Assembly (NCBI GenBank): GCA_963755045.1
Contig: CAVWIL010000007.1
Coordinates: 485,243-549,242 of the forward strand
From: Nitrospirota bacterium
GTDB taxonomy: Bacteria; Nitrospirota; UBA9217
Reading direction: 5' to 3'
Length of the DNA stretch: 64,000 nucleotides
Numbering within the stretch: position 1 is the first letter of the stretch; each line of letters opens with the position of its first letter. Both the position numbers and the translations under genes were made by a program. The notes below the pieces were generated by a model. The model did no database searches. It worked only from the letters and a program-made list of their open reading frames with translations, and was not told where the DNA came from. Shown in pieces: positions 5,299-62,140 of the stretch.

Positions 5299-6739
5299 CT
5301 AGGTCGTATCTCTCGAAGGAATTTTAAGTTTTTGACCGACACGGAGGTGTTTTCCATGCTTGAGGTTGTTCGTCTCCACGATCCTCTGGATGCTTGTGCG
5401 ATATCGTATCGCGATCGTCGAAAGGGTTTCTCCCCTTCTCACCCGATGAACAACATATTTGACCTGCGGAGGAGACCATTTTGGCAGGGTATCGATTTTG
5501 GCAAGCAGCGCGTCTTTCATTCCAAAAGGGACCTTGAGGTCATATACCGTATTCGGCGTGGCCGCGTACCGCAGCTCGGCGTTCAGGTTCACCAGGTCAT
5601 CATATGAACAAGAGATATTTTCCGAGATTTTTGAGAGTTGCAAAGGCTTTTCAATGGCCACGACTTCATAGGGAATGCGTTTTTCCAGTTCATCAAAGGT
5701 GAAGCCGTACTTGGCCGGATCTTTGAGGATCGTGAGGACAGCGAGGAAGCGCGGATAGTACCGGGCTGTCTCGCGCGGAAGCCGCCCATAGAGGTCCCAG
5801 AAATTATCGAGGTAGTCGATCTTCTGCTGCCTGATGACCCGTAACACGTTCCCTTCCCCGCAATTGTACGCAGCGAGCACTGTTGCCCAGTCGCCGAACA
5901 TCTGGTGGAGCTCCTTGAGGTACGCTATGGCCGCAGCCGTGGACTTATCGGGATCGAGCCGTTCATCGACCCATGAGGTGCGTTTGAGACCGAACTTATA
6001 GCCCGTTGAAGGTATGAACTGCCAGAGGCCGAGGGCACGCGCCTTGGAATAGGGCCCTAACCTTGAACCCGCTCTCGATCAGGGGGAGCCACGTGATCTC
6101 CTCGGGAATCCCTGCTTCGTGAAAGGATTTTACCATCTCGTCCCGGTATCTGCCCGAGCGCTTATAGGATTCAATAAAATAATCCCGTTCGATGGTTTGG
6201 AAAGACTTGATCTCACGCTCCACATGTTCATTCATGACAAGGGGTATTTCCTTGTGCAGGCCGTTCACCGAAGTGAGGCGCGACGTATATATCTCCATGA
6301 GCCTCTTCGAGATCACGAACCGCAGATCATCCTTCTGCTGGCTGCTCTTTCCTTCAGCGTCCGCCGGCGTTTTCAGGATGAGTGCGTATGCATGGTCCAG
6401 GGCCTCGACAGCTTTCTCGGCATCTCCCGCCGCCCAGAGCTCATGTGAGGTCTCAGTAAGTTCAAGCGCTGTATCGAGGAGGCTCTCCTCTGCCGGCACA
6501 ACGTTCCCGTTCTTGGTATCTTCCTCGGGTGAATCTTCCTCGTCATCCCCCGCTTCTGCGTTTTGATCGGGTTGAGGGTTTGCCTGATCGAGCAGCACGC
6601 CGGCTGCGCCATTTTCGGCAACCGAGGACTGTAAGCTCGCGATGTGCTGAGCCGGCTTCTCCGGAGATGTGTGTGCGGCACAACCGATCAGAAGAAAAGA
6701 TGAGATGATTGCAGCGTATGATATACCGAGTGTTTTCAT
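5299..6739 (-). pseudogene. membrane-bound lytic murein transglycosylase (SLT domain plus C-terminal LysM; MltD-like lipoprotein), interrupted by a frameshift near 6045-6065
   Basis: N-terminal part (ORF 5996..6781, lipoprotein signal LLIGCAAH, IESGF) and C-terminal part (ORF 5299..5901, AYNCGEGNV and LysM) lie in different frames. The SLT motif SKARALGLWQFIPSTG is readable only after a 1-nt shift. Confidence 0.75.
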
Positions 6740-6875
6740 GTTCATGCAACGGATAGTACTCCATGTTGCACGCAAATGCAATTATTTTTTTATTGGATGT
6801 GGCTTGCCTTGCAAAACAGGATGAATAACGGTATAGTATGCGTGCTTTCTTTCCACTGTCCGGTGAACTAGGCCT

Positions 6876-7562
6876 ATGCTTACTGAATACCTCGAACAAT
6901 ACGCGCTCATCTCGCTCGAAAAACAGGACAAGCTGGAGCTTCTTCTCGGCGACCATACGTATGTTCTCGATCTCGATTCCGGGAAGATCCGGTTCAACGA
7001 CAATCTCGAATTTCCCTTTCAGGTTCTCGGCACAGAGTCAGATAATACCCTGATCTGGCTTTGGGCGTGGGCTGATGAGCAGACAGAGGAGGTCCCGGTG
7101 GAACTGGTGCAGGCATCCCGTGAACTCAGGGACTGGGGATTGCGAGAGCGCGTGCAAGAATTTACCCTTCCTTCCGTTGACCTGCACAGAGCCGATGGCT
7201 ATGTACTTTCGCTGATTGCCAGCGAGCTCTGCAAGGCGAGCTGCTATTTCCGGGATGCATACGAAGGCGGATCGGCATTTCTCCTTCTTTACGACAAATT
7301 GATAGACGCACAGCCCTTCTTTGACCTGTCACGCTTATCACGCAGGTTCCTTGACCTGATCTCCCGGTATGATATCAACCATCGAAAGGCGCTCCTCTCC
7401 TATTTCCGGTTAAGGAGTCTATCCCCTGCAGAGACGGGCCCCACCATCACCTGCGAACTCGACTCCGGAGAACGGTTAAGCGCTGAGTTTGATGATGCAA
7501 GGTCGTCTGACGCGGTTGAACGGAGAAGCGATTACCACATGATGTCGGTGAGATACCTTTAG
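6876..7562 (+). CDS. hypothetical protein (228 aa)
   Basis: Long ORF with ordinary composition and no family recognised. Confidence 0.4.
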   Translation: MLTEYLEQYALISLEKQDKLELLLGDHTYVLDLDSGKIRFNDNLEFPFQVLGTESDNTLIWLWAWADEQTEEVPVELVQASRELRDWGLRERVQEFTLPSVDLHRADGYVLSLIASELCKASCYFRDAYEGGSAFLLLYDKLIDAQPFFDLSRLSRRFLDLISRYDINHRKALLSYFRLRSLSPAETGPTITCELDSGERLSAEFDDARSSDAVERRSDYHMMSVRYL

Positions 7563-7625
7563 TAATTACGATAGGATCGAATTCTGCTCAACATGGAAAG
7601 AAAATCTAAAAACTATTTCACTACA

Positions 7626-7774
7626 GATTAACACGGAATGACACATCCTGCACTCGCGTTACCACTCGTAAACGCTGGGCGCAGGCTGATTGAAATAAAT
7701 AAGGACTCAATCTTGAATTCTTATCCGTGCTCATCGATGTACATCCGCGGTGAAAATGAATTTATTTATGGTTC
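7626..7774 (+). repeat. dispersed intergenic repeat family R1, copy a (carries a ~40-bp insertion relative to copy b)
   Basis: Shares GATTAACACGGAaTGACAC ... CTTGAATTCTTATCCGTGcTCATC ... ATGAATTTATTTATgGTTCCGG with 8656..8772. Contains an internal CACGGA/ATCCGTG inverted repeat. Confidence 0.8.
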
Positions 7775-7801
7775 CGGCTTGTCCAGGTCAGGGAGTTATT
7801 C

Positions 7802-8590
7802 ATGAACTTGCTTGAAAACCTCGAAAGAAAATTCCGGCGCTATGCCGTTCACAACGTGACCCTCTACCTTGTTCTCGGCCAGGTGCTCTTTTTTGTATTC
7901 GCCCTATCCGGCAGGTTCATCCTCGAGCGCGTAGTGCTTATCCCCGAGTATGTGCTTGCGGGTGAGTGGTGGCGGCTCATCACGTTCCTGTTCATCCCCC
8001 CAGTTACCAGCCCGATATTCGCATTTTTCGCCTGGTACCTGTTCTATCTCATGGGGAACGCACTCGAAGGCCACTGGGGGGCGTTCCGTTACAACCTCTT
8101 TCTTCTTGCCGGCTACACCATCACCGTGGCAGTATCGTTCATCATGCCCCAGTATCCGGCGACGAACGTGTTTATCGGCGGTTCCGTGTTCCTGGCCTTC
8201 GCCTTCCTGTATCCGGATTTTCAGCTGTATATCCTGTTTGTCCTCCCGGTAAAGATCAAGTGGCTGGCGCTGCTTACATGGATCGGCTATGCCTATGAGG
8301 TCCTGTTCGGCTCCTGGTCGACACGGCTGTTCGTGCTTGCCTCGATCAGCAACTTCCTTCTGTTCTTTGGAAACGATATTCTGTGGAGAATGAAGACCGG
8401 CAAACGGGTCATGGCAGCCCAGGCGAGACAGTTCTCGGGAAAAAAGGAGGCATTCCACACCTGCGCAACCTGCGGTATTACTGATCTATCTCATCCGCAG
8501 ATGGAATTTCGTTACTGCCCCGAATGCGGCGGGCTCGGGTACTGCAAGGACCATATCCTGAGCCATGTGCACAAACGTAAATCCGGATAG
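7802..8590 (+). CDS. rhomboid-like polytopic membrane protein with C-terminal zinc-ribbon (CxxC...CxxC)
   Basis: Six predicted TM helices, a GGS motif in TM4, and C-terminal CATCG ... CPECG. The His of the rhomboid dyad is not obvious, so it may be catalytically inactive. Confidence 0.45.
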   Translation: MNLLENLERKFRRYAVHNVTLYLVLGQVLFFVFALSGRFILERVVLIPEYVLAGEWWRLITFLFIPPVTSPIFAFFAWYLFYLMGNALEGHWGAFRYNLFLLAGYTITVAVSFIMPQYPATNVFIGGSVFLAFAFLYPDFQLYILFVLPVKIKWLALLTWIGYAYEVLFGSWSTRLFVLASISNFLLFFGNDILWRMKTGKRVMAAQARQFSGKKEAFHTCATCGITDLSHPQMEFRYCPECGGLGYCKDHILSHVHKRKSG

Positions 8591-8655
8591 ATTTCTTAGT
8601 TACGTACAAATATAAATTCTCAAAATGACAAAAAATCAATAGCTGTTTTACCAAG

Positions 8656-8772
8656 GATTAACACGGATTGACACTGATTGATAAAAATAAGAACTATATC
8701 TTGAATTCTTATCCGTGTTCATCAGTGTGCATCCGTGGCAAATATGAATTTATTTATCGTTCCGGTTTGTTT
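8656..8772 (+). repeat. dispersed intergenic repeat family R1, copy b
   Basis: About 85-90% identical to 7626..7774 outside the indel. Contains AACACGGAT ... ATCCGTGTT, a 9-bp stem. Confidence 0.8.
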
Positions 8773-8848
8773 TGGTTAGGATAAAGGCAGAAAGATGTGC
8801 GGGTGGTTGATGGTCGTAGCAGGATACTGAACATCTAGAATCAGGTTC

Positions 8849-9373
8849 TCATTTTCCGTCCTTCCTGTTTTTTGATAACAACGTTCCTATTTTCGCTTTC
8901 ATTTCCGGGGCATCCCATGGCCGATCGCCCAGAATCTTTTCTCTGATAATCCCATCCCGGTCGATGATATAGGTTGTTGGAAGACCAAGGACCGCATACC
9001 GATCGAAAAAAACCTGCTGGTCCTTGTCAATGAGCACGGTAAAAGTTATGCCTTTTGCCTTGATAAATGATTGGACGGGCTTTTCGGAATCGTCCGTGGA
9101 TACGGCCAACACAATGAGGCCGTCCTTCTTAAACGAAATGAAGAGATTGTTGAGAGAGGGCATTTCCTCTTTGCAGGGACCGCAAAATGTTGCCCAAAAA
9201 TTAAGGATGACCACTTTCCCCTTATACTCCGAGAGGCTGACTTTTTTCCCGTTGAGGTCAGTGAGCGCAAAATTCGGGGCAGGCTTTCCGATCTGGGGAA
9301 GTTCAAGACTGACCGCATTCCTGACGAAAAGGGTTAACCAGAGCATGATGATCGACGAAATAATTTTCCGCAT
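8849..9373 (-). CDS. thiol:disulfide oxidoreductase, TlpA/ResA family (thioredoxin fold, exported)
   Basis: Signal peptide, WATFCGPCKEEMP active site. Last gene of the heme/cytochrome cluster. Confidence 0.8.
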   Translation of the reverse strand: MRKIISSIIMLWLTLFVRNAVSLELPQIGKPAPNFALTDLNGKKVSLSEYKGKVVILNFWATFCGPCKEEMPSLNNLFISFKKDGLIVLAVSTDDSEKPVQSFIKAKGITFTVLIDKDQQVFFDRYAVLGLPTTYIIDRDGIIREKILGDRPWDAPEMKAKIGTLLSKNRKDGK

Positions 9374-9436
9374 AATGAACTTCCTTAATCGAAGGGGAAC
9401 CGTGAAGCCTGAGCCGTGAAGCGTGTAAAGTCTGTG

Positions 9437-10411
9437 CTATTTATTCAATAGCGCAGCAGCCTCCTTGGCGAAATACGTCAGGATCATGTCCGCGCCCGCT
9501 CGTTTGATCGCAATGAGCGACTCCATCATGGCGCGTTCGCCGTCGATCCATCCGAGCTTCGCCGCTGCTTTTATCATGGAGAACTCTCCGCTCACATTGT
9601 AGGCGGCAACAGGCAGGTTGAATTGCTGTTTCACCTGGTAGATGATGTCGAGATAGGCGAGCGCAGGCTTCACCATCACAATGTCCGCGCCTTCGTCGAT
9701 GTCCAGGGCGACCTCTCGCAGCGCCTCACGGCTGTTCGGAGCGTCCATTTGGTACGATCGACGATCGCCAAACTGCGGTGTCGATTCTGCCGCTTCGCGG
9801 AACGGGCCGTAGAAACTTGACGCATATTTCGCGGCATAGGACATGATCGGTATATCGTGAAAACCCTCGCCATCAAGCGACTCACGGATGGCGCCGACCC
9901 TGCCATCCATCATGTCCGATGGCGCGACCATGTCCGCGCCGGCCCTGGCATGGGAAACCGCTTCCCTGGCAAGCAACTCAAGCGTGGCGTCGTTTTGGAC
10001 CACCCCGTTCTTGATCAAGCCGCAGTGGCCGTGGCTCGTGTACTCGCAAAGACAGACGTCAGTGATCACGACAAGTTCGGGAAACTTGTTTTTGATCGCC
10101 TTGATCGCATGCTGGACAATACCCTCATCGGAGTAGGCCTCACTGCCGACCTCGTCCTTGTGCTCGGGTATGCCGAAGAGAAGCACGGCGGGAACTCCGA
10201 GGTTCTTCACCTCTTCACAATCCTTCACGATATTGTCAATGGACTGCTGATAGTTCCCGGGCATGGACCCGATCTCTTTCTTCATGCCCTTGCCGTGAGT
10301 GACAAAAAGCGGATAGATGAGATTATCGGGGGAAAGCGTTGTCTCCCGGACCATGCGACGTATGTTCTCGTTGGACCGAAGCCTTCTCGGCCGATATACC
10401 GGCTGAAACAT
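9437..10411 (-). CDS. hemB: porphobilinogen synthase (delta-aminolevulinic acid dehydratase)
   Basis: Full-length HemB similarity. Internal ATG at 10411 preceded by an AGGAG RBS gives the canonical N-terminus [12 protein letters not shown]. Confidence 0.9.
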
Positions 10412-10508
10412 GGGATCTCCTGAAATCTGCAGAGGGCATGGGGCATAGCGCTTGGTGTACAACCCTCTGCGCTTTGCTCTCTGCTCTATGCGATGCTAAA
10501 AAAATAAT

Positions 10509-10886
10509 TTAACTGCACCCGCAGCCGCCGGAGCCGCATCCCCCGCCGCTTTGTTTGGTCTCTTCGCCGCCGCAGCCGCAGCTCCCTCCGGACGGCGCAC
10601 CGTTCGGAAATCCGATCGCAAAGCCTTCGCCGCGCTCATCGCTGATGAAGCCAAGCTCCGCGCCTTCCAGCTTACTGGCAGTCGTGGCATCGACAAAAAC
10701 CCTGGCGCCGTTCTTCTCGACAACGGTGTCGCCGTCGCCTGTCTTATCATCGATCATGATCTCAAAAGACGGGCCGCAGCCGCATCCACCTCCGGCTGTT
10801 GCTACGCGCAATGCATGGTTGGGTACGCCTTCTGCCTTGAGTATTTCCTTTATCTTGTCCGCCGCAACTTCTGAAATGGTAATCAC
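10509..10886 (-). CDS. HesB/IscA-family iron-sulfur cluster insertion protein with Cys/Gly-rich C-terminal extension
   Basis: IscA core with GGGCGCGPSF and a SCGCG terminal motif. The extra tail is GGEETKQSGGGCGSGGCGCS. Confidence 0.75.
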   Translation of the reverse strand: MITISEVAADKIKEILKAEGVPNHALRVATAGGGCGCGPSFEIMIDDKTGDGDTVVEKNGARVFVDATTASKLEGAELGFISDERGEGFAIGFPNGAPSGGSCGCGGEETKQSGGGCGSGGCGCS

Positions 10887-10946
10887 CTTGTTCTCCTTAT
10901 TGATTATTTAATATCTTTGCCGCAGAGGTCAAAGAGTGACAAAACC

Positions 10947-12485
10947 TTATTTTTTCCTGAAAAACTCCACCATCGCATCGACGAGTGCCGGAATGGTATA
11001 TTCTTTCGGCATAATGTCTATCTTCATGCCGTATTCATTGGCGGTCTTTGCTGTTACCGGACCAATGCAGGCAACGGTCACACCCTCAATAAGTTTTATA
11101 TACCCTTTTTGACCGAGTATTTCAACAAAATTGTGCACGGTCGATGAGCTGGTAAAGGTCACTGCGGAGATCTTCTTCTCCTCAAGCAGTTTTTTGACCC
11201 GGTCCACATCCGATGTGGGCCGGACGTTCTCGTAAGCGGTCGCGACCGTCACCTCGGCACCCTGTTCCCTGAGCTTGTCCGGGATTATTTCACGTGCCAC
11301 CTTCGCCCGGGGGACCAGGAATTTCCGGCCCTTCACATTCACACCGCCGAGCGCGGCAACCACACCTTCCGCTTTGAACTCTGCGGGTATCAGGTCAGCC
11401 TTGAGTCCGTACTGCTCGAGCAGCTCCGCCGTCTTTGGACCGACCGTGCAGATGTTCACTCCCTTGAGCATGCGCAGGTCCTTCCCGAGTCCGCGAAGCC
11501 GGTCCATAAAATATTTGACCGCGTTCGCGCTCGTGAATATGATCCAGTGATATGTCTCGATCGCCTGGATGGCGCTGTCGAGCTCAGCCCAGCTCGCGGG
11601 AGGAACAACATCGATCGTCGGAAATTCAATGGTCGTTGCGCCGCGGTCGATGAGCATCTCGGCAAACACGCTTGCCTGATCGCGCGAACGCGTGATCACG
11701 ATCCGTTTTCCGAAAAGAGGCTTGGACTCGTACCAGTTCAGCTTTTCCCTGAGTTTCACCACCTCGCCGACGATGATGATGGCCGGCGGGCCGAGCCTGG
11801 CTTCTTTGACCCGGGGGATTATATCGTTCAGGGTTCCCGTTACTACTTTCTGGTCAGTGCGGGTACCCCACTGGACGACAGCTGTCGGCGTTTCCGGGTT
11901 TCTGCCGTGTGCAATAAGATTGTCAACGATATTCTGGATATTCTTCATGCCCATAAAGAACACCAGCGTGCCGATGCCGGTCGAGATCTTGTCCCAGTGC
12001 ACTTTGGATTCCGGTTTTGTAGGGTCTTCATGTCCGGTCACGAAGGCAACGCTTGCGGTAAAATCCCGATGGGTGAGCGGGATACCCGCATAGGTCGGCA
12101 CCGCGGTGGCAGCGGTCACGCCAGGTACGACTTCAAAGGGAATGCCGCTGTCAACCAGCTCCTCGGCCTCTTCCCCGCCCCTACCGAAGATGAAAGGATC
12201 GCCTCCTTTTAAACGGGCAATGAGCTTCCCTTCTTTCGCCTTCTTGACGATCAGGCTGTTGATCTCCTCCTGGGGCAGCGTGTGCCGGCCGCCTTGTTTG
12301 CCGACATAGATCAGCTCCGCATCAGGCCGCCGCTGATCGAGCAAACGCTCGTTAGCAAGATAGTCATAGATGATCACATCCGCCTTTTTCACGCACTCCA
12401 GGCCTTTGACCGTGATCAGACCCGGGTCACCCGGGCCGGCGCCGATAAGATATACTTTTCCGATTGATTGAGTCATGATTGCCAA
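10947..12485 (-). CDS. cobA: uroporphyrinogen-III C-methyltransferase / uroporphyrinogen-III synthase fusion protein
   Basis: N-terminal SUMT domain (VYLIGAGPGDPGLITVKG) plus C-terminal HemD domain. TTG at 12485 or ATG at 12476 could be the start. Confidence 0.9.
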   Translation of the reverse strand: MAIMTQSIGKVYLIGAGPGDPGLITVKGLECVKKADVIIYDYLANERLLDQRRPDAELIYVGKQGGRHTLPQEEINSLIVKKAKEGKLIARLKGGDPFIFGRGGEEAEELVDSGIPFEVVPGVTAATAVPTYAGIPLTHRDFTASVAFVTGHEDPTKPESKVHWDKISTGIGTLVFFMGMKNIQNIVDNLIAHGRNPETPTAVVQWGTRTDQKVVTGTLNDIIPRVKEARLGPPAIIIVGEVVKLREKLNWYESKPLFGKRIVITRSRDQASVFAEMLIDRGATTIEFPTIDVVPPASWAELDSAIQAIETYHWIIFTSANAVKYFMDRLRGLGKDLRMLKGVNICTVGPKTAELLEQYGLKADLIPAEFKAEGVVAALGGVNVKGRKFLVPRAKVAREIIPDKLREQGAEVTVATAYENVRPTSDVDRVKKLLEEKKISAVTFTSSSTVHNFVEILGQKGYIKLIEGVTVACIGPVTAKTANEYGMKIDIMPKEYTIPALVDAMVEFFRKK

Positions 12486-12595
12486 ATAAATTAACCGCGA
12501 AGACGCAAAGTACGCGAGGAAAATATCGGATTTTAAGAAGAAGAATCCACCCTTCGCGACCTTCGCGCCCTAGCGGTTCGAAGATTCAGGTTCTA

Positions 12596-13561
12596 TTACG
12601 AATTTTCCAAAAGGTTATTGCCGCTGAAGTCGGTCGTATTCCCGTACACTTCCCGAAGGATCACGTCCGCCCCCTGGGAGAGGAGCTTTTCCGCCAGGAC
12701 CACGCCAAGCTTCTCGGCCTTCTCCGGCTCTCCTTCAATGGAGTCCTTGACGATGCGCTTGCCGTCCACGCTGCCGACGAGACCGATAAGCATGAGCCTC
12801 CCGTTCTTCACCTGCCCATAGCAGGCGATGGGGACCTGGCAGCCTCCTTCAAGCCTTCTGAGGAGCGCCCGTTCGCCGGTAACGCAGGTGCGGCTGTCCG
12901 CATGGTTGAAGAACGCGATCATGTCATTGAGTTCCCGGTCATCCACCCGGCACTCAATGCCGAGCGCCCCCTGGCCGATGGCAGGCAGGCTGATCTCGGG
13001 TGAGAGGTATTCCGAGACATTCGCCTCAAGCCCGAGCCGCTTCACCCCTGCCGCGGCAAGGATGATGGCGTCGAACTTTCCTTCTTTCAATTTCTGCAGC
13101 CGCGTGCCCACATTGCCGCGCAGCTGATGGATCACAAAGTCCGGACGCAGGCTCATGAGCTGTGCCTGACGCCTCAAACTGCTCGTGCCCACATTCGCTC
13201 CCTTTGGCAGATCCTTGAACGCCACATTATTTCGCGAAAGCAGGGCGTCCCGCGCATCCTCCCGTTTCGTGATGCACGAAAGGTGGAGTCCGTCGGGGAA
13301 AAAGGTCGGCACGTCTTTCATGCTGTGCACGGCAATGTCGATCTCATTCTCCAGCATTGCCTCCTCGATCTCCTTGACGAACAACCCCTTGCCGCCGACC
13401 TTGGCGAGCGGCACATCAAGGATCTTGTCGCCGGTGGTCTTGATCTTCGTGAGCGTCACGGTCACGCCGGGATAGCGCTTCTCGAGCTCCGACTTAACCC
13501 ATTCCGCCTGCCAGAGCGCGAGTGCGCTGGCGCGTGTACCTATTCTGATCTGTTTTCGCAA
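12596..13561 (-). CDS. hemC: hydroxymethylbilane synthase (porphobilinogen deaminase)
   Basis: RIGTRASALALWQAEWV N-terminus and full-length HemC similarity. Confidence 0.9.
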   Translation of the reverse strand: MRKQIRIGTRASALALWQAEWVKSELEKRYPGVTVTLTKIKTTGDKILDVPLAKVGGKGLFVKEIEEAMLENEIDIAVHSMKDVPTFFPDGLHLSCITKREDARDALLSRNNVAFKDLPKGANVGTSSLRRQAQLMSLRPDFVIHQLRGNVGTRLQKLKEGKFDAIILAAAGVKRLGLEANVSEYLSPEISLPAIGQGALGIECRVDDRELNDMIAFFNHADSRTCVTGERALLRRLEGGCQVPIACYGQVKNGRLMLIGLVGSVDGKRIVKDSIEGEPEKAEKLGVVLAEKLLSQGADVILREVYGNTTDFSGNNLLENS

Positions 13562-13635
13562 TGAATGACTCCTTTGAATAACTCGTTCTAAAAATCAGTC
13601 CGGATCCGACCGATCCGACTGATCCGTCTGATTCA

Positions 13636-15000: not shown

Positions 15001-15038
15001 TCCGCTTTCACCTGACCCGGACTAGCCGGAACCAACTT

Positions 15039-51838: not shown

Positions 51839-53150
51839 GTTCCCCTCTCCCCTGGTCATCCTCTGTATATTTGAGCACCCGGATGCGCGATATCCGGTTC
51901 TTCCTCAGCCGAAGCACGGTAAACAGGACGTTCTGGTGTTTGATCTGGTCGCCCTCGGCGGGCAATCGCCCGAAGAGCCCGAGCAGAAAACCGCCGATCG
52001 TCTCGAATTCGTCTTCCGGCAGCCTGATCCCCAGTTTATCATTCACCTTGCCGATGTCGGTCTTCCCGTCAACGATGTACCGGTTTGCGGCGATCTCATT
52101 GATCTCCTGCAGTACCTTCTCCTGCTCATCCCTGATGTCTCCGATGATCTCTTCGATAAGATCTTCCATGGTCACCAGGCCGTCGGTGCCTCCGTATTCA
52201 TCGCCCACCAGGGCCAGGTGGATGCGTTTTTCACGCATCTCTTTTAACAGGACGCTGACATTCTTATTGGGAGGTACGATATACGGCTTCCGGAGTATCT
52301 GGTTGAGACTGACTTCCTTCTCTAAAAGGTGAAGCGGTAAAATGTCCTTGAGATAAACGACACCGATGATGTTGTCGATGGTCTCGGAATATACCGGCAG
52401 CCGGGAGAACCCCTTCTCATTCATGGTATGAAGGATCGAATCGACGTCGCTCTCCGCTTCGACTGCCACGATCTCGGTCCGGGGGACCATCACCTCTTTT
52501 ACGACGGTGTCGGTGAACCGGAACACGCTGTGGATGAGGTCCTCTTCCGACGGTTCGAACACCCCGCTCTTTCGTCCCTCCCGGATGAGATATTTGACCT
52601 CGTCTTCCGACACCAGAGACGGCTCGTGCTCATGCGAGGAAACAAACAGACCAATGATGAAATTACTCGATGCGGTCAGCATTCGCAGCACCCGGCGAAA
52701 GGTCCGGGAAAGAACATCGACGGATGTCGATGTGAAAAATGCGATCTTTTCAGCATTGCGGATCGCAAACGACTTGGGGACCAGCTCTCCGAACACCAGC
52801 GTCAGATACGTTATCACGCTGACGACGATACCGACTGCGATCGGCTCGGCAGCTCTCTGGAGGAATTCCATCGGCAGGGAAGCAAAAAAAGGTTTGATGC
52901 GCTCAATGGCTATTACACCGCCGAACGTGGCCGCCAGCGTCCCGATGAGCGTAATGCCGACCTGAATGGTGGCGAGAAAACGCTCCGGTTCCTCCTGGAG
53001 CTTCTGGATCCGTATTGCTTTCCTGTTCCCGCTTTTTACAAGATGCCGCACGCGACTTTTGCGAAGCGAGATCAATGAAATTTCGGCCGCTGCAAAAAAA
53101 CCGTTCAGGAGGATGAGAAGTATGATTGAGAGAAGCGTAAGAAAAAGCAT
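51810..53150 (-). CDS. hemolysin/CorC-family transporter-associated protein (CNNM/DUF21 TM domain, two CBS domains, CorC_HlyC domain)
   Basis: Domain order recognisable from sequence. Overlaps purC by about 30 nt. Confidence 0.8.
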
Positions 53151-53162
53151 AGATATTTACTA

Positions 53163-53288
53163 TTGCGGATTTCGGATTTTAGATTTGGGATTTTTCAATA
53201 CAACAGCATCTCCCTACATTCATTTCCTGGATAAAACTGCCGCTCTCTCCGTTCCGCAATCCGCAATCGGCAATCTAAAATCCGTATT
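53163..53288. repeat. intergenic inverted/tandem heptamer repeats (ATTGCGG/CCGCAAT and GATTT units) between the CorC-like gene and the UbiD-family gene
   Basis: TTGCGGATTTCGGATTTTAGATTTGGGATTT ... CCGCAATCCGCAATCGGCAATCTAAAATCCG. The arms AATCTAAAATCCG and CGGATTTTAGATT are complementary. Confidence 0.45.
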
Positions 53289-54744
53289 CCTTCCAGCGTT
53301 TCTCGACCAACGCCTGGACCTCCGGTGACATCTTGATCTCATCCGGCCATGAACGCGTGAATCCCTCACCGGGTCCTTTGCGCGTGGCATCGATTCCCAT
53401 CTTGCCGCCGAACCCGATCTGCGGACAGGAATGATCAAGGATGTCGAGCGGCCCGTCGGTGATGATCACATCGCGCTGCGGGTCGACATGGTTCATGACC
53501 TTCCAGGTAACTTCGGAGTAATCGTGGATATTGACGTCCTCGTCGCAGACAATGACGAACTTGGAGAGCATGAGCATGCCCGTGCCCCAGATCGTGTTGA
53601 TCACCTTCTTGCCGTGGCCGGGATAGCGCTTCTTGATCCTGACGATCACATTATTATGGAACACGCCTTCAACGGGCATGTCCATGTCGAGGATATCGGG
53701 AGCGACCATCTGGAGAAGCGGGAGAAATATCCGTTCCGTGGCCTTGCCGAGATAAGCGTCTTCCTGCGGCGGCCGGCCGACCAGTGTGGCCGGATAGATA
53801 GCGTTCCGGCGGTGCGTAATGGCGGTAATATGGAATACCGGGTACTCGTCTGCCTCGGAGTAGTAGCCCGTATGGTCGCCGAAGGGTCCTTCCACCCGCC
53901 GTTCGTGGGGATCGACGAATCCTTCAAGGACGAACTCCGCCTCCGCCGGTACCCGAACGTCGACGGTCTTGCACTGGACGACCTCGAGAGGCTTCTTTCT
54001 GAGAAAGCCCGCAAAGATGAACTCACCGATGGCCGGCGGGAGCGGCGCGGTGGCTGAATATATGATGGAGGGATCGCCGCCGATGGCAACCGCAACCTCC
54101 ATGCGCCTGCTGGACGCCTCGTACTGCTGATACTGCCTGGCGCCGTCCTTGTGCTTGTGCCAGTGCATGCCCGTGGTCTGATGGTCAAAGACCTGCATGC
54201 GGTACATGCCGACGTTCGTGATCTTCGTCAGGGGATCGATTGAGCATACCATCGGAAGCGTGATAAACCGTCCGCCGTCGGCAGGCCAGCACTTAAGCAC
54301 CGGAATTTTTGAAAGGTCTACATGGTCTCCCGTCAGAACGACGTCCTGACACGGGGCTTTTTTGACGGTCTTGGGAAAAAATTTGGCGAGTTCGGCAAGT
54401 TTCGGCAGTACTCCCAGCTTGTCCAGGAACCCGGCGCCCGGACCCGGGAACAGGTTCGTGGGATCGACGAGTTCCTTGATCCGTTGGCCGATCTCATCCA
54501 GGCTCTCGACCTCGAGCGCGAGGCAGATCCGGTTCATGGAACCGAATGCATTGGTCAGGACCGGGAAGGCCGACCCAATGACGCGCTCGAACAGAAGCGC
54601 CGTATTCGCCGCGCCCTTTTCTTTTGATACCCGGTCGGTGATTTCCGCGATCTCAAGGTCGGCGTCCACTTCAGCCTTGACCCTGACCAGTTCGTTGTTT
54701 TTTTCGAGAACCGCGATAAAATCTCTTAATGTATCGTATGCCAT
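53275..54744 (-). CDS. UbiD-family (prenylated-FMN-dependent) decarboxylase
   Basis: Full-length (489 aa) UbiD-family similarity: MAYDTLRDFIAVLEKNNELVRV, GGDP. Confidence 0.85.
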   Translation of the reverse strand: MAYDTLRDFIAVLEKNNELVRVKAEVDADLEIAEITDRVSKEKGAANTALLFERVIGSAFPVLTNAFGSMNRICLALEVESLDEIGQRIKELVDPTNLFPGPGAGFLDKLGVLPKLAELAKFFPKTVKKAPCQDVVLTGDHVDLSKIPVLKCWPADGGRFITLPMVCSIDPLTKITNVGMYRMQVFDHQTTGMHWHKHKDGARQYQQYEASSRRMEVAVAIGGDPSIIYSATAPLPPAIGEFIFAGFLRKKPLEVVQCKTVDVRVPAEAEFVLEGFVDPHERRVEGPFGDHTGYYSEADEYPVFHITAITHRRNAIYPATLVGRPPQEDAYLGKATERIFLPLLQMVAPDILDMDMPVEGVFHNNVIVRIKKRYPGHGKKVINTIWGTGMLMLSKFVIVCDEDVNIHDYSEVTWKVMNHVDPQRDVIITDGPLDILDHSCPQIGFGGKMGIDATRKGPGEGFTRSWPDEIKMSPEVQALVEKRWKEYGF

Positions 54745-54810
54745 GGGAATTGGATTGTATCGGAATCACTGGAGATTTGCAATCAAAAACTCCAAAAACA
54801 CCGTTGTCGT

Positions 54811-56184
54811 CTAGGAGTCGCCGTACTTTTGCAGCCGGTGCCGGAAGGATCGGAAGGTCAGGCCGAGCAGTTTTGCCGCATCTGTCTTGACCCCTCCTGT
54901 TTTCTCGAGCGCTTTCCGGAGAAACGTTCTTTCCGTTTTTTCCAGCAGGGCCTCGAGGTCCATCCCAGTGTCGGGGATTTCGAGCGTGAACTGGTCGGAA
55001 AAGGGCGAGGGGTTTTTCACCGTATCCGGCACCTGATCGAGGCGAATAACGTTCTCCGGGGTCATGATCATCATTCGCTCTATTGTGTTCTCCAGTTCAC
55101 GAACGTTCCCCGGCCAATGATACGCCATCAGCGCCTGCATTGCCTCAGCGTCGATCAATTTGACCTGCGCCCGCTCGACCTCCTTGCGCACGACTTTCTT
55201 GAGAAAATATTCCGCAAGAAGCGGGATATCGTCCTTTCGTTCCCTGAGCGGAGGCAGGTGGATGGGGATCACGTTCAAGCGGTAGTACAGGTCCTCCCGG
55301 AACGCGCCCTTCGCAATTTCCGCCAGCAGGTCCTGGTTGCTTGCGGCGATGACATGCACATCAACCGTGACTCCGGCGGTCCCGCCTACCCGGATGAACT
55401 CCCGTTCCTGGAGCACCCGCAGGAGCTTGATCTGGAGCGCCGGCGTTGTCGCACTGATCTCATCGAGAAAAATGGTCCCCTTGTTGGCTGCTTCGAAGAG
55501 TCCCTGCTTGTTCGACGATGCGCCGGTAAAGGCGCCCTTCATATATCCGAACAATTCGCTTTCCAGAAGGGTCTCGGGCAAGGCCCCGCAGTTGACCGTC
55601 ACGAACGGCCCGTTCTTCCGGGGGCTGTTGAAATGAACGGCCTTTGCCACGAGCTCTTTGCCGGTCCCGCTCTCGCCTGTTATCAGGACGGTGCTGGTCG
55701 TATCCGCAACTTGACGGATAAGGGAAAAGACCTTTTGCATCGGCTCGCTTTTCCCGATAAAATTGGCGAATCCCGTCTTCGACTCGATCTCGCGTTTGAG
55801 AAGGATATTCTCCTTTCTCAGATAGCGCTTTTCGAGAGAGTTGTAAATGATCAACTTCAGTTCATCTACCTTGAAGGGCTTGGTGATGTAATCATACGCC
55901 CCGATCTTCATGGCCTCGACCGCAGTCTCGGTGGTTGCGAAGGCGGTGATCATGATCACGACGGTCTCCGGTGATATTTCCTTGACCGACTTGAGCACTT
56001 CCATACCGTCGGCCCCGGGCATCTTCACATCGGTGATCACCAGGTCGAAGATCTCGGCCTGGACCGCCTTGATTGCGTCTGCGCCGTTCTTTGCCGTCAC
56101 GACTTCGTGACCTTCCTTGGTGAGCAGGATCGCGAGAAAGTCCCGCATGCTCTGTTCGTCGTCGACAACGAGTATTTTACTCAT
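54811..56184 (-). CDS. pilR: sigma-54-dependent response regulator of the type IV pilus locus (NtrC family: REC, AAA+ sigma54 activation and Fis HTH domains)
   Basis: ATG 56184 (MSKILVVDDE). GAFTGA motif, ESELFGY, C-terminal HTH. Its start overlaps the pilS stop (ATGA). Confidence 0.85.
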   Translation of the reverse strand: MSKILVVDDEQSMRDFLAILLTKEGHEVVTAKNGADAIKAVQAEIFDLVITDVKMPGADGMEVLKSVKEISPETVVIMITAFATTETAVEAMKIGAYDYITKPFKVDELKLIIYNSLEKRYLRKENILLKREIESKTGFANFIGKSEPMQKVFSLIRQVADTTSTVLITGESGTGKELVAKAVHFNSPRKNGPFVTVNCGALPETLLESELFGYMKGAFTGASSNKQGLFEAANKGTIFLDEISATTPALQIKLLRVLQEREFIRVGGTAGVTVDVHVIAASNQDLLAEIAKGAFREDLYYRLNVIPIHLPPLRERKDDIPLLAEYFLKKVVRKEVERAQVKLIDAEAMQALMAYHWPGNVRELENTIERMMIMTPENVIRLDQVPDTVKNPSPFSDQFTLEIPDTGMDLEALLEKTERTFLRKALEKTGGVKTDAAKLLGLTFRSFRHRLQKYGDS

Positions 56185-56185
56185 A

Positions 56186-57886
56186 TCAATTCCGCCTCTT
56201 CTGCGCCTGCCCGGTATTGTTCTTGGGCAGTGAGTAAACCGGTTCCTCGCGGATCGGGAGCCGGATGATGAATTGCGTCCCTTTGCCTGGCGCACTGTCC
56301 ACGGTGATCGTACCCTGATGGTCCTCGATGATCCGGTAGACGATCGACAGTCCCAGACCGGTGCCCCCTGTCTTTGTGGTAAAAAAGGGGTTGAATATCC
56401 TGTCACGATCTTCCTTCGCGATTCCCTGACCCGAATCCTTTATGATGATCACGCACCAATCAAGGTCATCTTTTGCCCGGGAAGACACCCTCGCGGTGAC
56501 CGTTATCTCGCCGCCCTGCGGCATTGCCTGGCAGGCGTTAATGAGCAGGTTCCAGAAAACCTGGCGGATCCGCTGGGAGTCCCCTTTTATCACGGCGCGC
56601 GGATCAACCTGCTGGGTGATGCGGATGTTGCCTGAATACTCCTTGCAATTCTTCAAAAGCATGATCGTCTCGTCAAGGACGGGCGAAAGCTCGATATAGT
56701 CGTTCTGGGCGTTCTTGAGGCGGGCATATTCCAGAAATTCCATGATGATCGTGTTGAGCCGGTCTGTCTCGCGAACAACGATATCCATAAGGTGTTTGTT
56801 GTCTCCCTGCAGGGCGAGTTCTCCCTGAAGCACCTGGATGGAACCGCTGAGCGATGCGAGCGGGTTCCGGATCTCATGGGCGATGCCAGCGGCAAGGCTC
56901 CCGACGGTTGCCAGCCGCTCCTTCGTCCGTACCTGGTCCTCCATCTCCATCAGCTTGGTTATATCCTGGAAGATAAGGATGAACCCGCGAACCGTGTTGG
57001 CATCGTCCTTGAGCAGAGAGGCGGTCATCCCGAGCAGCGCAATACTGCCGTCCTTTTTCATGATCTGTCCGTTGAAACGGAACGGGTGTGATTTCAGCGA
57101 ATCGGTATGGCCGAAGACTCCCTTGATGCTGTCCCCGAACACCTGCTGCCAGCGGCTTTTGATCTCGTCGTACGGGTACCCCGTGATCTGTTCCGCGGCG
57201 GGGTTCCACGATGCGATGTTGCCCTGCAGGTCCATCGTCACGATCCCGCTTCCCACGCTCCGCAGGATGTGCTCCTGCAGGACGCGGAGGTCTTGCAGGT
57301 CCATGCTTTTCTCGCGCAGTTCCTTGCGCGTTTTCCTGAGACGCTCAGAAAGGTAGCCGCTCAAAAGACCGACGATGTAGAACGAAAGGATATTGATGAA
57401 CACCTGAAAGAGCACCTGGACTGCCGTAAAGTTCTGACTCCTGACGAAACCGGGAACGTTATAATACTGCATGTCCAGCATTGCGCCGTAGAGAATGCTC
57501 GAGAGAGAAGCCGAAAGATACCCTCCCCGGCGGTAGAGAATAATACTTGACGATATAATGGTAAGATGGTAGAGGAGTGAAAAACCGCTGTCGATGCCTC
57601 CGGTAAGGTACGTGAGGGCGGTGACGAGAAGAATATCGACCGACGTCTGAAGATAGGCGAGGAGGGAAAGAGGCTGTATTCTTTTAAGAAGGTACCAGTA
57701 AACAACGGTCAGGCAATAGACGGAGAGAAGAAAATAGTATACATACGCGGTCTTGAACGGATAAATCGTATAGCGCTGTTGAATAAAAACAAGGGTCCCG
57801 ACCAGAAAGGTCGCGAGCACCACCCTGCTCCAGATAAGCCACTTTATGCGAATTGTGTATTCTTCTTTTGAATACTCTTGTGTCAC
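56186..57886 (-). CDS. pilS: sensor histidine kinase (membrane N-terminus, PAS, HisKA, HATPase_c)
   Basis: H-box AAGIAHEIRNPL and GTGLGLSIV. Positioned between pilC and pilR. Confidence 0.8.
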   Translation of the reverse strand: MTQEYSKEEYTIRIKWLIWSRVVLATFLVGTLVFIQQRYTIYPFKTAYVYYFLLSVYCLTVVYWYLLKRIQPLSLLAYLQTSVDILLVTALTYLTGGIDSGFSLLYHLTIISSSIILYRRGGYLSASLSSILYGAMLDMQYYNVPGFVRSQNFTAVQVLFQVFINILSFYIVGLLSGYLSERLRKTRKELREKSMDLQDLRVLQEHILRSVGSGIVTMDLQGNIASWNPAAEQITGYPYDEIKSRWQQVFGDSIKGVFGHTDSLKSHPFRFNGQIMKKDGSIALLGMTASLLKDDANTVRGFILIFQDITKLMEMEDQVRTKERLATVGSLAAGIAHEIRNPLASLSGSIQVLQGELALQGDNKHLMDIVVRETDRLNTIIMEFLEYARLKNAQNDYIELSPVLDETIMLLKNCKEYSGNIRITQQVDPRAVIKGDSQRIRQVFWNLLINACQAMPQGGEITVTARVSSRAKDDLDWCVIIIKDSGQGIAKEDRDRIFNPFFTTKTGGTGLGLSIVYRIIEDHQGTITVDSAPGKGTQFIIRLPIREEPVYSLPKNNTGQAQKRRN

Positions 57887-57894
57887 GTGAGTCG

Positions 57895-59107
57895 CTAACC
57901 CGCCGCCGCGCCCATCTGGAATATCGGCATGTACATGGCCACGATCACAAAGCCGACCACGACGCCCAGAAAGATCATGAGCATGGGCTCCAGCATGGAG
58001 GTGAGCGCCGCCACCGCGGAATCCACCTCATCATCGTAGAAGTCCGCGATCTTATTCAGCATGTTGTCGAGCGCGCCCGTCGCCTCACCGACCGAGATCA
58101 TCTGAGACGACCATGGCGGGGAATATTTTTGCCCTTCCCAGCGGATCAGCAAGCGTTTTTCCTTCGCTCACGCTCTGCCGGGTGGCGAGGATCGCCTCTT
58201 CCACGACCTTGTTGCCTGCGGTCCTGGAAACGATCAGCAACCCTTCAAGGATGGGGACCCCGCTGGTAAGCAGCGTGCCGAGGGTGCGCGTAAACTTGGC
58301 AACCGCCACCCTCTGGATCAGCGATCCCGCAACGGGTACTTTTAACGCTATCGCATCGGTCGTTCTCAGCCCGTTTTCTGTTTTCCTGAATTGTTTGAGA
58401 CCAACAAAGAAACCAATAATGACGAAGAGAAGGCTCAGTCCGCCCCAGCCTTTCAAAAAATTGCTGATTGCCATGACAATGCGGGTTGGGAAAGGCAGCT
58501 GCATTTTCGCTTCAACAAAAATGGCGGCCAGCATGGGGACGACGACGACCAGCAGCAGGGAGACCACGGCAACTGCGACGAACAGAATGATCGCGGGATA
58601 TATCATCGCCGATTTGATCTGACCTTTGATCTTTGCGAACTTTTCCATAAACGCGGCGAGCCGCCCGAGAATGGTATCCAGAATACCGCCAGCCTCTCCG
58701 GCGGCAACCATATTGCAATAAAGAGCGTCAAAGATCTTGGGGTGTTTTTTCAGGGCATCGGCAAACGTTGCGCCGCTCTCCACATCGGACCTCACCTGGT
58801 TTACGGTCTTTTGAAGCGTTTTGTTTTCCGTCTGGGTGCCGAGGATATCAAGACACTGCACGAGCGGCAATCCTGCATCGATCATGGTCGCCAACTGCCG
58901 GGTAAAGATCACGATATCTTTATCCTTGACCTTTGGAGCGCCGAAGCTCAACTTGATATCTTTCGGCTTGGCGGTTACATTGATGGGCTGAATATTCTGT
59001 TTCCGAAGGAGCGCGAGCACATCCTCTTTGCTGTTTGCAGCGATCTCGCCCTTCTGGACCGCTCCCTGTCGTGTTTTGCCTTCCCATGTAAATACGCTTG
59101 TTGCCAT
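57895..59107 (-). pseudogene. pilC: type IV pilus assembly platform protein PilC (GspF family), frameshift near 58100-58112
   Basis: ORF 58085..59107 (N-terminal and middle parts) and ORF 57895..58152 (C-terminal QMISVGEATGALD ... VAMYMPIF) are in different frames. One extra base in GTCGTCTCAGATG. Confidence 0.8.
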
Positions 59108-59145
59108 TTTTCACCTCGTCGTTATTGGACCGGCATCCGGACGTC

Positions 59146-60250
59146 TCAGCGGTATTCCTTCCGGACATTCTGCGTCCCTGCAAGGCCGGAGCGCCCAAGC
59201 ATTTGAATAAGTTCGTCGGGATTCGACGACCGGCCGATACAGTCCTCATATGAAATAAATTTTTTGGTATAGAGTTCATACAGCGACTGGTTGAGCGTCA
59301 TCATGCCGAATTTTGACTGGCCGGTCTGCATAATCGAATAGATCTGATGGATCTTGTCCTCCCTGATGAGATTCCGGATAGCGACATTCGGGATCATGAC
59401 CTCAAGAGCGAGCATTCTGCCGCCGCCTATCTTCGGAATGAGCGTCTGGGACATGACGCCCTCGAGAACGAACGACAGCTGTGCCCTGACCTGGGATTGC
59501 TGGTGGGGCGGAAAGACATCGATGATACGATTCATCGTTTGCGCAGCGGAGTTCGTATGGAGTGTCGCAAACGTCAGATGTCCTGTTTCCGCTATGGTCA
59601 GTGCCGCTTCAATGGTTTCGAGATCGCGCATTTCACCGACGAGCACGACATCGGGGTCTTGCCGGAGAATGTATTTCAATGCGTCCTTGAACGACTTGGT
59701 ATCGGCGTTGACTTCCCGCTGGTTTACCAGGCATTTTTTATGCGGGTGGAGATACTCAATCGGGTCTTCGATGGTGATGATATGTTCCTGCCGCTCGCTG
59801 TTGATCTTGTCGATCATCGAGGCCAGTGTTGTCGATTTGCCGCTGCCCGTGGGCCCGGTGACGAGAACGAGTCCTCTCGGCTTCTTGCAGAGGTCGGATA
59901 CGATTTCCGGCAGTCCCAGTTCGTGGAATGTTTTGATCTTAAAGGGGATGGTCCTGACCGCAGCAGCAACAGCGCCGCGCTGCACGAACATGTTCGCGCG
60001 AAAGCGGGACAGGTTCTTTAACGCCGAAGGAGAGGTCAAGTTCGCTGTTCTCTTCAAACTTGTGTTTCTGGGCATCGGTGAGGATGCTGTAACAGAGGTC
60101 CTTGGTCTGCGTGGCGGAAAGGGGTTCCAGTCCAGGGATCAATTTTATCTTGCCGTCAACGCGGATCGATGGTGGGATTCCCGTGGTTATATGCAGGTCG
60201 GATGCACCTTTTTCTATCATGAATTTGAGCAAATCGTGCAGGTTGGCCAT
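59146..60250 (-). pseudogene. pilT: twitching-motility ATPase PilT, frameshift near 60020-60030
   Basis: N-terminal 103-aa ORF (ASDLHITTGIPPSIRVDG) and 309-aa ORF (Walker A GPTGSGKST etc.) are in different frames. One extra G in TTCGGCG. Confidence 0.8.
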
Positions 60251-60305
60251 TATGATGAACCCCTTTTATTGAATACCCGGTTGTACTTCACGCCCGCTGG
60301 TGTCG

Positions 60306-62140
60306 CTAATTCTTATCAGGGAATGTATTCTCAACCACTTCTTCCAGCGAAGTCAATCCCGCCTTCACCTTCAACAGTCCGCTCGCCCGAAGCGTCTTCA
60401 TTCCCCCGCTGACAGCCGCTTTTTTGAGCTCGAAGACCGATGCGCCCTGCAGAACGAGTTCCTTGATGTCGTCCCTGAGCGGCATGACCTCGTAGAGGGC
60501 TACCCTGCCTTTGTACCCGGTCTGGTTGCAGATATCACAGCCTTCCCCCTTGTAGCTCACGATGGTCTTGGCCTCTTCCGGATCGAACCCCGCCTCGATA
60601 AAGGTCTCAACCGGCAGTTTTTGAGGCTTCTTGCATTTCTGGCAGGCCTTCCGTACAAGCCGCTGCGCCACGATCAGGATCACTGCCGAGGATACCAGGA
60701 ACGGTTCAACACCCATGTTAAGCAGACGGTTGATGGTGCTTGGGGCATCATTGGTATGGAGTGTGGAGAGCACCAGGTGGCCGGTGAGCGCGGCCTTGAC
60801 CCCGATCTCCGCGGTTTCATAATCACGGGTCTCTCCCACCATGATGATATCCGGGTCCTGACGGAGAAAGGAGCGGAGCGCCGCGGCAAAGTTGAGCCCG
60901 ATCTCGTCCTTCATCTGGACCTGATTGATACCCATAAGGTTGAATTCCACCGGGTCCTCGGCGGTCATAATGTTTTCGGAATCGGTGTTCAGTTCGCTCA
61001 GCGCCGAGTAGAGGGTTGTGGTCTTGCCGCTTCCTGTCGGGCCTGTCACCAACACCATGCCGAACGGTTTCCCGAGGGCATCCTTGAAATCCGCCAGCTG
61101 GTCCTCATCAAAGCCAAGCTTGGTCATGTCGAGCTGAAGATTCGACTTGTCAAGCAGGCGCATGACGATCTTTTCGCCGAACAGGGTCGGAAGAACGGAA
61201 ACACGAAAGTCCATCACCTTGTTCTTGCTCATCTTGAGCTTGATCCTGCCGTCCTGCGGAAGTCTCCGCTCGGCGATGTCAAGGGATGACATGATCTTTA
61301 TGCGGGAGATGATCGCATTCCTGATCTTGAGCGGAAGACCCATGACCGTTTTCAGAACTCCGTCAAGCCGGTACCGCACCCTGAACTTTTTCTCGTAGGG
61401 CTCGATGTGGATATCGCTCACGCCCGCCTTTGCCGCACGGAGCAGAATGCCGTTCACGAGTTTCACGATCGGCGCTTCAACCTCTTCCGACAACGCGTCC
61501 AGCTTGTCATCTTCAATCACTTCGAGTTCATCGACCGCGCCGTGGACAAGGTTGTCGAAATCATCGACGTCCACCTCTCCGCCGGTATCGATATCATCCA
61601 CAAAGCCGCCGTCATCAGCAGTATCATCCATCGCATAATCTTTGGCATCCAGGGAGATCTTTTTCTCTTCCCGTGGGCGTCCGCTTTGGCCGAAACGAGT
61701 GCCTTGGTGGCACCGCCATAATATTTTTTGACCGCTTCAACAATTGCGCCTTCGGTTGCCACAACAGCTTCAACATTATAGCCGGTCATGAATTTGATGT
61801 CGTCGATGGCGAATATATTGGAGGGGTCGACCATGGCGATGGTGATCGTGGCACCGGCGCGATTGATCGGCATGATGCGGTATTTCTGCGCTACATCCGA
61901 AGGAATATGTTTTATGACAACAGGATTGATCTCGAATTTGCCCAGGTCGACATACGGGACGCCGTACTGTTTACTCAGAAACGTCATCAGCTTGTCTTCC
62001 TGCACGAACCCCATTTTGACCAGGATAGAGCCGAGCCTGCCGCCTTCGTTTTTCTGCGCGGCAAGCGCTTTTTGCAGCTGATCTTCCGTGATCAGACCCG
62101 ACGAAACAAGCATCGCGCCGAGTCTTCCAGACATCGCCAT
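60306..62140 (-). pseudogene. pilB: type IV pilus assembly ATPase PilB (GspE family), frameshift at an A5 run near 61655-61665
   Basis: N-terminal MshEN/T2SSE_N domain in ORF 61517..62140 (LGAMLVSSGLITEDQLQKALAAQ). ATPase core in ORF 60306..61631 (GPTGSGKTT, zinc CxxC...CxxC). Confidence 0.8.

Follow-up and report, generated by a model that had tools for sequence, protein, structure and literature searches.

Frame breaks in a 64-kb Nitrospirota contig window probably reflect consensus indel error rather than gene loss

The frameshifts that interrupt conserved genes in the 64-kb stretch of DNA analysed here, referred to as the window, appear to be indel errors of the sequencing or assembly consensus and not real gene loss, a reading to which a probability of about 0.8 is assigned on the basis of sequence comparison, and in the organism itself the broken genes are very probably intact. 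This artefact reading is favoured because the one-base slips are shared by no related genome. Nine frame-breaking indels in eight genes were delineated from open reading frames (ORFs), Pfam matches of the gene halves and base-level alignment to contigs of 97-98% identity, and together with one nonsense codon they affect nine of the approximately 58 genes in the window. These comprise the essential lysS, pil genes and accessory genes, with some clustering in the pil operon within the 64 kb covered. Pseudogene, split-gene and "missing pathway" calls from this assembly, for instance that type IV pili or LysRS have been lost, are to be treated as provisional, and gene counts and completeness estimates derived from it will be distorted.

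Frame breaks and their repair

Five of the lesions are +1 insertions. In the mltD-like lytic transglycosylase gene (SLT and LysM domains; 5299-6745, minus strand), an extra T on the plus strand at 6050 yields CT[A]TTCC on the coding strand, as compared to CTTTCC in relatives; the gene is intact with 481 aa in three same-species contigs (L004, L005 and L006), and without base 6050 the window likewise encodes 481 aa, at 98.3% identity. The DUF6882 gene (6876-7562, plus strand) carries an extra G at 7497, which alters the final ~15 codons and shifts the stop from 7540-7542 to 7560-7562, while removal of this base gives 221 aa, the same length as in relatives. In lysS, encoding the class II lysyl-tRNA synthetase (18654-20160, minus strand), the coding strand at 19213 reads GGAT[C]AACC vs GGATAACC in relatives, and the tRNA-synt_2 catalytic core is divided into profile positions 2-164 and 185-308. 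Intact proteins of 492-499 aa are the closest database entries (98% identity), the intact gene of the short-read contigs encodes 493 aa, and the repaired ORF comprises 501 aa at 98.4% identity. The remaining two insertions are located in pilC (two T2SSF domains; 57895-59107, minus strand), where the coding strand at 58103 reads GTCTC[A]GATG vs GTCTCGATG in relatives, and in pilT (59146-60250, minus strand), where GTTAAA[G]AACC at 60016 corresponds to GTTAAAAACC. The additional base of pilC is absent from 27 relatives, and the repaired ORFs encode 403 aa at 98.3% identity and 367 aa at 99.2% identity, respectively.

In each of the other four lesions, one base is missing (-1) from a short run of G, C or T. 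Two of them break the gene of a giant RCC1-repeat/InlB-B-repeat surface protein (25603-30673, minus strand), hereafter the adhesin, into three ORFs: a coding-strand G5 run at 29925-29929 requires G6, and a G6 run at 27127-27132 requires G7. Addition of one G to each run produces a single ORF of 1690 aa. Three orthologues (P0241, P0243 and P0244; 1627-1659 aa, 78-82% identity) are in frame, with junction 2 reading IAAGGYHSVALK and, in P0243, junction 1 reading AGAGGSITWPLG, and the paralogous repeats carry G4, G6 and G6 at the break position. In the RibD_C-like (dihydrofolate-reductase-like) gene (41438-42102, minus strand), the base is missing at ~41976-41977, where the coding strand reads GATTCC vs GAYTTCC or GATTACG in relatives. 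This gene is intact in ten relatives with ~221 aa; the repaired ORF likewise comprises 221 aa and shares 92.8% identity with that of contig L167, while identity is at most 85% among the GTDB-representative matches listed. The frame break of pilB (MshEN and T2SSE; 60306-62140, minus strand) is situated at 61673-61685 in a hypervariable linker, in which L007 exceeds the window by 13 nt, and L008 and L026 exceed it by 19 nt. The net 13-nt deletion equals an in-frame length difference of 12 nt plus one missing base, and restoring one base gives 611 aa with 98.5% identity to a relative of 615 aa.

As a consequence of these shifts, the SLT, T2SSF, T2SSE/MshEN and RibD_C domains are each divided between two frames. 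The first-pass annotation had reported frame breaks at all of these sites apart from 7497 in DUF6882, which it overlooked, and ORFs, Pfam halves and alignments recovered every reported break as real, either at the given position or only a few bases away from it. Its description of a single inserted base in every case applies to 6050, 19213, 58103 and 60016; the four other reported events are -1, and the pilB shift, which had been put at ~61660, is a genuine frame break that lies inside the net 13-nt deletion and is not a clean one-base event. The further statement that insertions often occur in short homopolymers did not hold either, as none of the five +1 events extends a homopolymer and only the -1 events have such a setting. 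In all five insertions the inserted base is unlike either neighbour, two of them splitting a T run, and duplication of a neighbouring base, which simulation of random insertion predicts in 43% of cases, was observed in none. No shared sequence or methylation motif was consistent across the five insertion contexts when these were compared by eye. A GATC site is gained at one insertion site and lost at another. Rfam and tRNA scans detected no RNA genes in the window.

Related genomes and the signature of selection

Comparison at the species level relied on three independent short-read assemblies (L004, L005 and L006; MEGAHIT and JGI contigs) with 97-98% nucleotide identity to the window, supplemented by L007 at the same level of identity. 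The sites at 6050, 7497, 19213, 58103, 60016 and 61673-61685 are intact in the comparable contigs of this set, with L007 covering the pil genes, while for the RibD_C and adhesin sites the comparison was confined to relatives at 78-92% identity. Moreover, the insertions in lysS, pilC and pilT are missing from 10-30 further relatives, down to ~75% identity. Over the ~24 kb of coding sequence shared with a relative, six frame-breaking indels fall on the branch of the window vs none on that of the relative. Among the matches listed, the closest GTDB genomes in the clade are MFD MAGs assembled from long reads, whose contigs bear Flye-style names.

One edit per site is sufficient to obtain an ORF of the relatives' length with 93-99% amino acid identity, and the indel-broken genes show one lesion per break and no further decay once repaired. 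Each lesion can be located and repaired by comparison with same-species short-read contigs. Substitutions polarised with an outgroup amount to 25 nonsynonymous (N) and 96 synonymous (S) changes for the window vs 38 N and 114 S for the relative, and on the window branch the broken genes (10 N : 37 S) can be set beside the intact genes (15 N : 59 S). This shows normal purifying selection, with relaxed selection not detected on the window branch.

Origin of the frame breaks

The first-pass annotation had attributed the shifts to indel-type consensus error and not to mass pseudogenisation, which is supported by the private nature of the lesions, the one-edit repairs, the normal N:S ratio and the presence of lysS among the broken genes. 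We infer that the lesions originated in sequencing or consensus-building and not in the cell, a mechanism that is provable only with reads. According to the proposed scenario, the sequence would come from an uncultured Nitrospirota bacterium, Thermodesulfovibrionia/Ca. Sulfobium-like, whose assembly consensus would be right for substitutions, yet would retain one-base indels, roughly one for every 6 kb of coding sequence (~Q37). Two types of error would be involved, namely under-calling of G, C or T homopolymers, giving rise to the four -1 events, and addition of a spurious non-templated base, giving rise to the five +1 events, and each error would leave two ORFs in place of a gene that is otherwise functional. 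Such a profile would match metagenome assemblies from long reads (nanopore or PacBio CLR) that had received little polishing or had low coverage, although the long-read platform itself is a guess. Exact repeats in the window reach 102 bp at most; an argument for long-read origin from repeat content was dropped, since a short-read assembler could also resolve a repeat of this length.

Residual errors of nanopore sequencing are dominated by indels, which inflate pseudogene counts, all the more at low coverage (PMC8103633; PMC8011154), and most systematic nanopore errors are homopolymer indels (PMC8011154). As in the window, one-base indels of nanopore and PacBio CLR assemblies of microbes and metagenomes divide conserved genes into adjacent out-of-frame ORFs, substitution accuracy is high, homopolymers are under-called, the apparent pseudogene fraction is inflated, and the breaks can be corrected via close homologues (PMC8103633; Homopolish, PMC8011154; Kastor, PMC12007338). 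On the other hand, five of the nine events in the window insert a base unlike its neighbours, which these studies describe less frequently than homopolymer indels (PMC8103633; PMC8011154; PMC12007338). Insertions of one base outside homopolymers differ from the classic nanopore error and stand against consensus error.

A variant of assembly error that could account for the insertions, but is considered unlikely, is a mixed-strain consensus in which both alleles of a polymorphic third-codon position were kept in tandem. Several closely related strains of the species co-occur in public metagenomes, and four of the five insertions pair synonymous codons (CTA/CTT in mltD, ATC/ATA in lysS, TCA/TCG in pilC and AAA/AAG in pilT). 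However, 44% of random insertions into the coding sequences of relatives fit this pattern in simulation, so that four of five corresponds to p = 0.12. Moreover, none of the available relatives carries the alternative allele at the four codons, and the -1 homopolymer events are left unexplained.

Less probable still are real mutations, in the form of recent inactivation of type IV pili (pilB, pilT and pilC), phase switching of the adhesin through poly-G tracts and decay of accessory genes. In favour of this possibility, and against consensus error, the three consecutive pil genes of one operon are each broken once within 3.6 kb, where a uniform rate predicts ~0.5 breaks, a clustering that would also fit decay of one pathway. 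Likewise, both adhesin lesions reside in poly-G tracts (G5 and G6, with G4 and G6 at the equivalent position of paralogous repeats), for which real slipped-strand variation is conceivable, and the adhesin resembles phase-variable loci in being a large repetitive surface protein in a strain-variable island. Its tracts of 5-7 bases are short, whereas classical contingency loci possess longer ones, and similar short-run -1 events occur in the non-surface RibD_C gene and probably in pilB. The window also shares with host-restricted or decaying genomes the many genes interrupted by frameshifts or stops and a nearby IS element, as an intact IS256-family transposase is encoded in the window.

In contrast to decaying genomes, though, the window exhibits exactly one lesion per gene in sequences that are otherwise 98-99% identical to their relatives, the hydrolase described below excepted; it displays no nonsynonymous excess, same-species relatives are intact, and the essential aminoacyl-tRNA synthetase gene lysS is broken with no second copy visible in the window. 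Natural slippage insertions nearly always duplicate a neighbouring base, whereas the inserted bases here are non-templated and do not represent slippage products. In addition, ~15% of the genes would be freshly broken and none by older lesions, a combination that is not typical of decaying genomes. It is very improbable that all frameshifts are real and fixed in this strain. In that case, a free-living Nitrospirota lineage would just have lost its type IV pili and giant adhesin, and a second lysS or efficient frameshift suppression would allow it to live with a class II LysRS that is split or frameshifted. Inactivation of an essential synthetase and recent loss of function in a pilus operon would be notable if true, but the evidence points away from them.

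Expression despite the shifts, by programmed ribosomal frameshifting or transcriptional slippage, has a negligible probability: only the pilT site (AAA-G) resembles a slippery Lys site and transcriptional slippage is possible in principle at the short homopolymers of the -1 events, but no motif is common to the nine sites, corrections in both directions (+1 and -1) would be required, and the sites are unique to the window sequence and unshifted in every relative examined. Programmed frameshift sites are normally conserved among relatives, and programmed frameshifting was rejected for want of a common slippery site and of conservation of the shifts. As regards stimulatory elements, the Rfam scan yielded no match in the window.

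Nonsense codon and alternative start

Apart from consensus indel error, which remains the preferred reading of the frameshifts, two further irregularities concern codons. The first-pass annotation had correctly noted an in-frame TAG, which lies at 44828-44830 in an alpha/beta-hydrolase gene (44252-45208, minus strand) and replaces the CAG (Gln) of relatives (Q119*). Its attribution to sequencing error is less secure for this gene, which also displays a G124D exchange in the GXSXG nucleophile elbow (GGT to GAT, 44813-44815), a P160H exchange and an N:S ratio of 23:24 relative to L167. Judged from its sequence, with a nonsense codon and two radical missense changes that resemble real decay and stand against consensus error at this locus, the hydrolase gene may be a genuine pseudogene.

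The ATA start codon that had been recorded along with the frameshifts is likewise present, at 53154-53156 in the gene of a CNNM/CorC-type transporter (51810-53156, minus strand), where it occupies the ATG position of the relative L007. It proved harmless and does not constitute a lesion, because an ATG two codons downstream (53148-53150) gives a product of 446 aa, the length called in L002 and L003.

Disrupted genes and their intact relatives

The window has a GC content of ~52% and carries ~58 recognisable genes, with no tRNA or Rfam-recognised RNA genes found by tRNA and Rfam scans of its 64 kb, and the Pfam matches of genes that are unaffected by the frame breaks are almost all full-length. 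Each gene that the first-pass annotation had named as broken is indeed present as adjacent same-strand ORFs in different frames, which match complementary halves of the family profile according to ORF listing and Pfam. The lysS ORFs cover tRNA-synt_2 profile positions 2-164 and 185-308, the SLT match of the SLT/LysM (mltD-like) gene begins at profile position 32, and pilC comprises a full T2SSF copy followed by T2SSF 54-125. Similarly, pilT and pilB are split (T2SSE and MshEN), the RibD_C match begins at profile position 33 and is preceded by a 46-aa N-terminal ORF, while the giant RCC1/Flg_new_2 protein (adhesin) is divided into three pieces.

The reconstructed lysyl-tRNA synthetase shares 98% identity with metagenome proteins, and its close matches with a named source are nearly all Nitrospirota or Nitrospirae. 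For a neighbouring gene, the best GTDB matches among those listed are Nitrospirota/Thermodesulfovibrionia MAGs, including Ca. Sulfobium (PMC5812927) and several long-read MFD MAGs. Comparator contigs were recovered by exact-protein and pattern searches. The same-species set, with 97-98% nucleotide identity, consists of independent short-read assemblies: L001 and L004 (ENA MEGAHIT) together with L005 and L006 (JGI) span window positions 5298-20265, and L007 (JGI) spans 50952-64000. L167 covers 41.4-45.4 kb at 90-92% nucleotide identity, while L002/L003 (88%) and L008/L026 served as outgroups. In all of the comparators lysS (493 aa), SLT/LysM (481 aa), DUF6882 (221 aa), RibD_C (221 aa), PilB (615 aa), PilT (367 aa) and PilC (403 aa) are intact.

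When one base is removed or added at each site, the reading frames are restored to 481, 221, 501, 221, 403, 367 and 611 aa, with 93-99% identity to the relatives, whose lengths they equal except for natural variation at the C-terminus (lysS) and in the linker (pilB). In the adhesin, one additional G per tract produces an ORF of 1690 aa; its intact orthologues, which share 78-82% identity and measure 1627-1659 aa, read "IAAGGYHSVALKTDGT", and one of them, P0243, additionally reads "AGAGGSITWPLG" uninterrupted over the other junction.

Anatomy of the lesions

Gap-by-gap comparison with relatives combined with frame analysis separates two classes of lesions. The first comprises five +1 insertions at 6050 (mltD-like), 7497 (DUF6882, a frameshift absent from the first-pass list), 19213 (lysS), 58103 (pilC) and 60016 (pilT). 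In none of the five does the extra base match the base on either side; the ones at 6050 and 60016 each interrupt a T-run on the plus strand. The added base is missing from all relatives, and for lysS, pilC and pilT these extend to 10-30 that are more distant. The second class consists of four -1 events in short runs: two in the adhesin (29925-29, G5 where G6 is needed; 27127-32, G6 where G7 is needed), one in RibD_C at about 41976 (TT versus TTT in closer relatives), and one in pilB (61673-85), in a linker that also shows in-frame variation between relatives and in which the window lacks 13 nt compared with L007. The earlier description, in which every shift is one added base and often lies within a homopolymer, is thus only half right: no insertion lies in a homopolymer, and the events that do are deletions. 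None of the five insertions extends a homopolymer, as opposed to 43% expected even for random insertions; this spectrum is not that of slippage. In shared coding sequence, six frame-breaking indels fall on the window branch versus none on the relative's.

Origin of the frame breaks

Substitutions in 15 genes (17 kb) were polarised by outgroup. The window branch carries 25 nonsynonymous and 96 synonymous changes, compared to 38 and 114 on the short-read relative's branch, and on the window branch the ratio is 10:37 in disrupted genes (lysS, pilB, pilT, pilC) and 15:59 in intact ones. Hence, constraint is not relaxed, and no excess of substitutions is found on the window branch across these genes; the window sequence is reliable with respect to substitutions, with indels as its weak point.

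Consensus indel error, with a frequency of about one event in every 6 kb of coding DNA, most simply explains six facts together: private lesions, one lesion per break, a normal selection signature, an essential synthetase among the genes hit, a non-slippage insertion spectrum and under-called homopolymers. The breaks resemble a well-documented error type of long-read assemblies, in which indels dominate, raise pseudogene counts and worsen at low coverage (PMC8103633; PMC8011154; Kastor PMC12007338). The sequencing platform behind the window is something we infer; repeat content, considered as a clue to it, was uninformative (longest exact repeat, 102 bp). A mixed-strain mechanism that retains both alleles at insertion sites fits four of the five insertions, a share that chance alone could give (p = 0.12). 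Real pseudogenisation draws support only from the three hits clustered in the pil operon, the position of the adhesin breaks in poly-G and the state of an alpha/beta-hydrolase, and is disfavoured by the broken lysS, the one-lesion pattern and the selection test. Programmed frameshifting across the sites fails on both motif and conservation. The first-pass reading as indel error instead of mass pseudogenisation is supported by the private single lesions, the selection signature and the disrupted lysS, and with the corrections described its observation is confirmed: the evidence supports an artefact of assembly quality that holds little biological interest, with the exception of one gene that is possibly a true pseudogene.

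This candidate is the alpha/beta-hydrolase, a gene of another kind than those broken by indels. Its previously reported TAG is present at 44828-30. The site is Gln in the five closest homologues, encoded by CAG in L167, and further changes at invariant positions comprise P-to-H and, in the GXSXG nucleophile elbow, G-to-D. Relative to L167, nonsynonymous and synonymous changes number 23:24, and the gene is possibly a genuine pseudogene. The ATA start, likewise present (53154-56, in place of ATG in L007), is harmless because an ATG two codons downstream yields a 446-aa product, as called in L002/L003.

Variable segments and further observations

The segment bearing the adhesin gene (24700-31700) appears to be a strain-variable island; it is absent from same-species L001, where the flanks (~24716 and ~31717) lie ~60 nt apart. 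The gene contains a tandem duplication of ~700 nt (26819-28189, 92.7% identity), and at the corresponding poly-G position (27812, 27143, 26247) its paralogous copies read G4, G6 and G6, so that tract length varies even inside one gene. That the adhesin truly varies at its poly-G tracts has a low probability. Another strain-variable patch is 48883-50207, since L007 carries different, unmatched sequence between the same flanks and Pfam matches are lacking there. Next to it, a 190-aa ORF (50215-50787) is intact, while its homologue at L007:18154-18926 is shortened by ~136 additional nt, which may represent a small insertion on the side of the relative and not of the window.

A 404-aa IS256-family transposase (Transposase_mut) at 35632-36846 appears intact, with a match to profile positions 11-377 of 379, and no recognisable genes were found in the flanking 36.9-38.6 kb. 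Upstream of the second alpha/beta-hydrolase, an intergenic 11-nt tandem duplication (CAGGGAAACAG twice, 43219-43240) is single-copy in L167. Positions 1-3400 are low in GC (~46%) and contain only short ORFs, with no Pfam matches. An AhpC/thioredoxin-like gene is called as 87 aa in L002:20488-20751 and L003:20489-20752, which bear Flye-style contig names, versus 174 aa in the window and short-read contigs; therefore, these public long-read MAGs may also suffer from gene-truncating problems. Finally, the TP_methylase/HEM4 fusion gene does not align with L004 in its N-terminal region (12481-12601), and the fusion measures 534 aa in L004, 509 aa in L005/L006 and ~512 aa in the window; the start of this gene appears to vary naturally in length.
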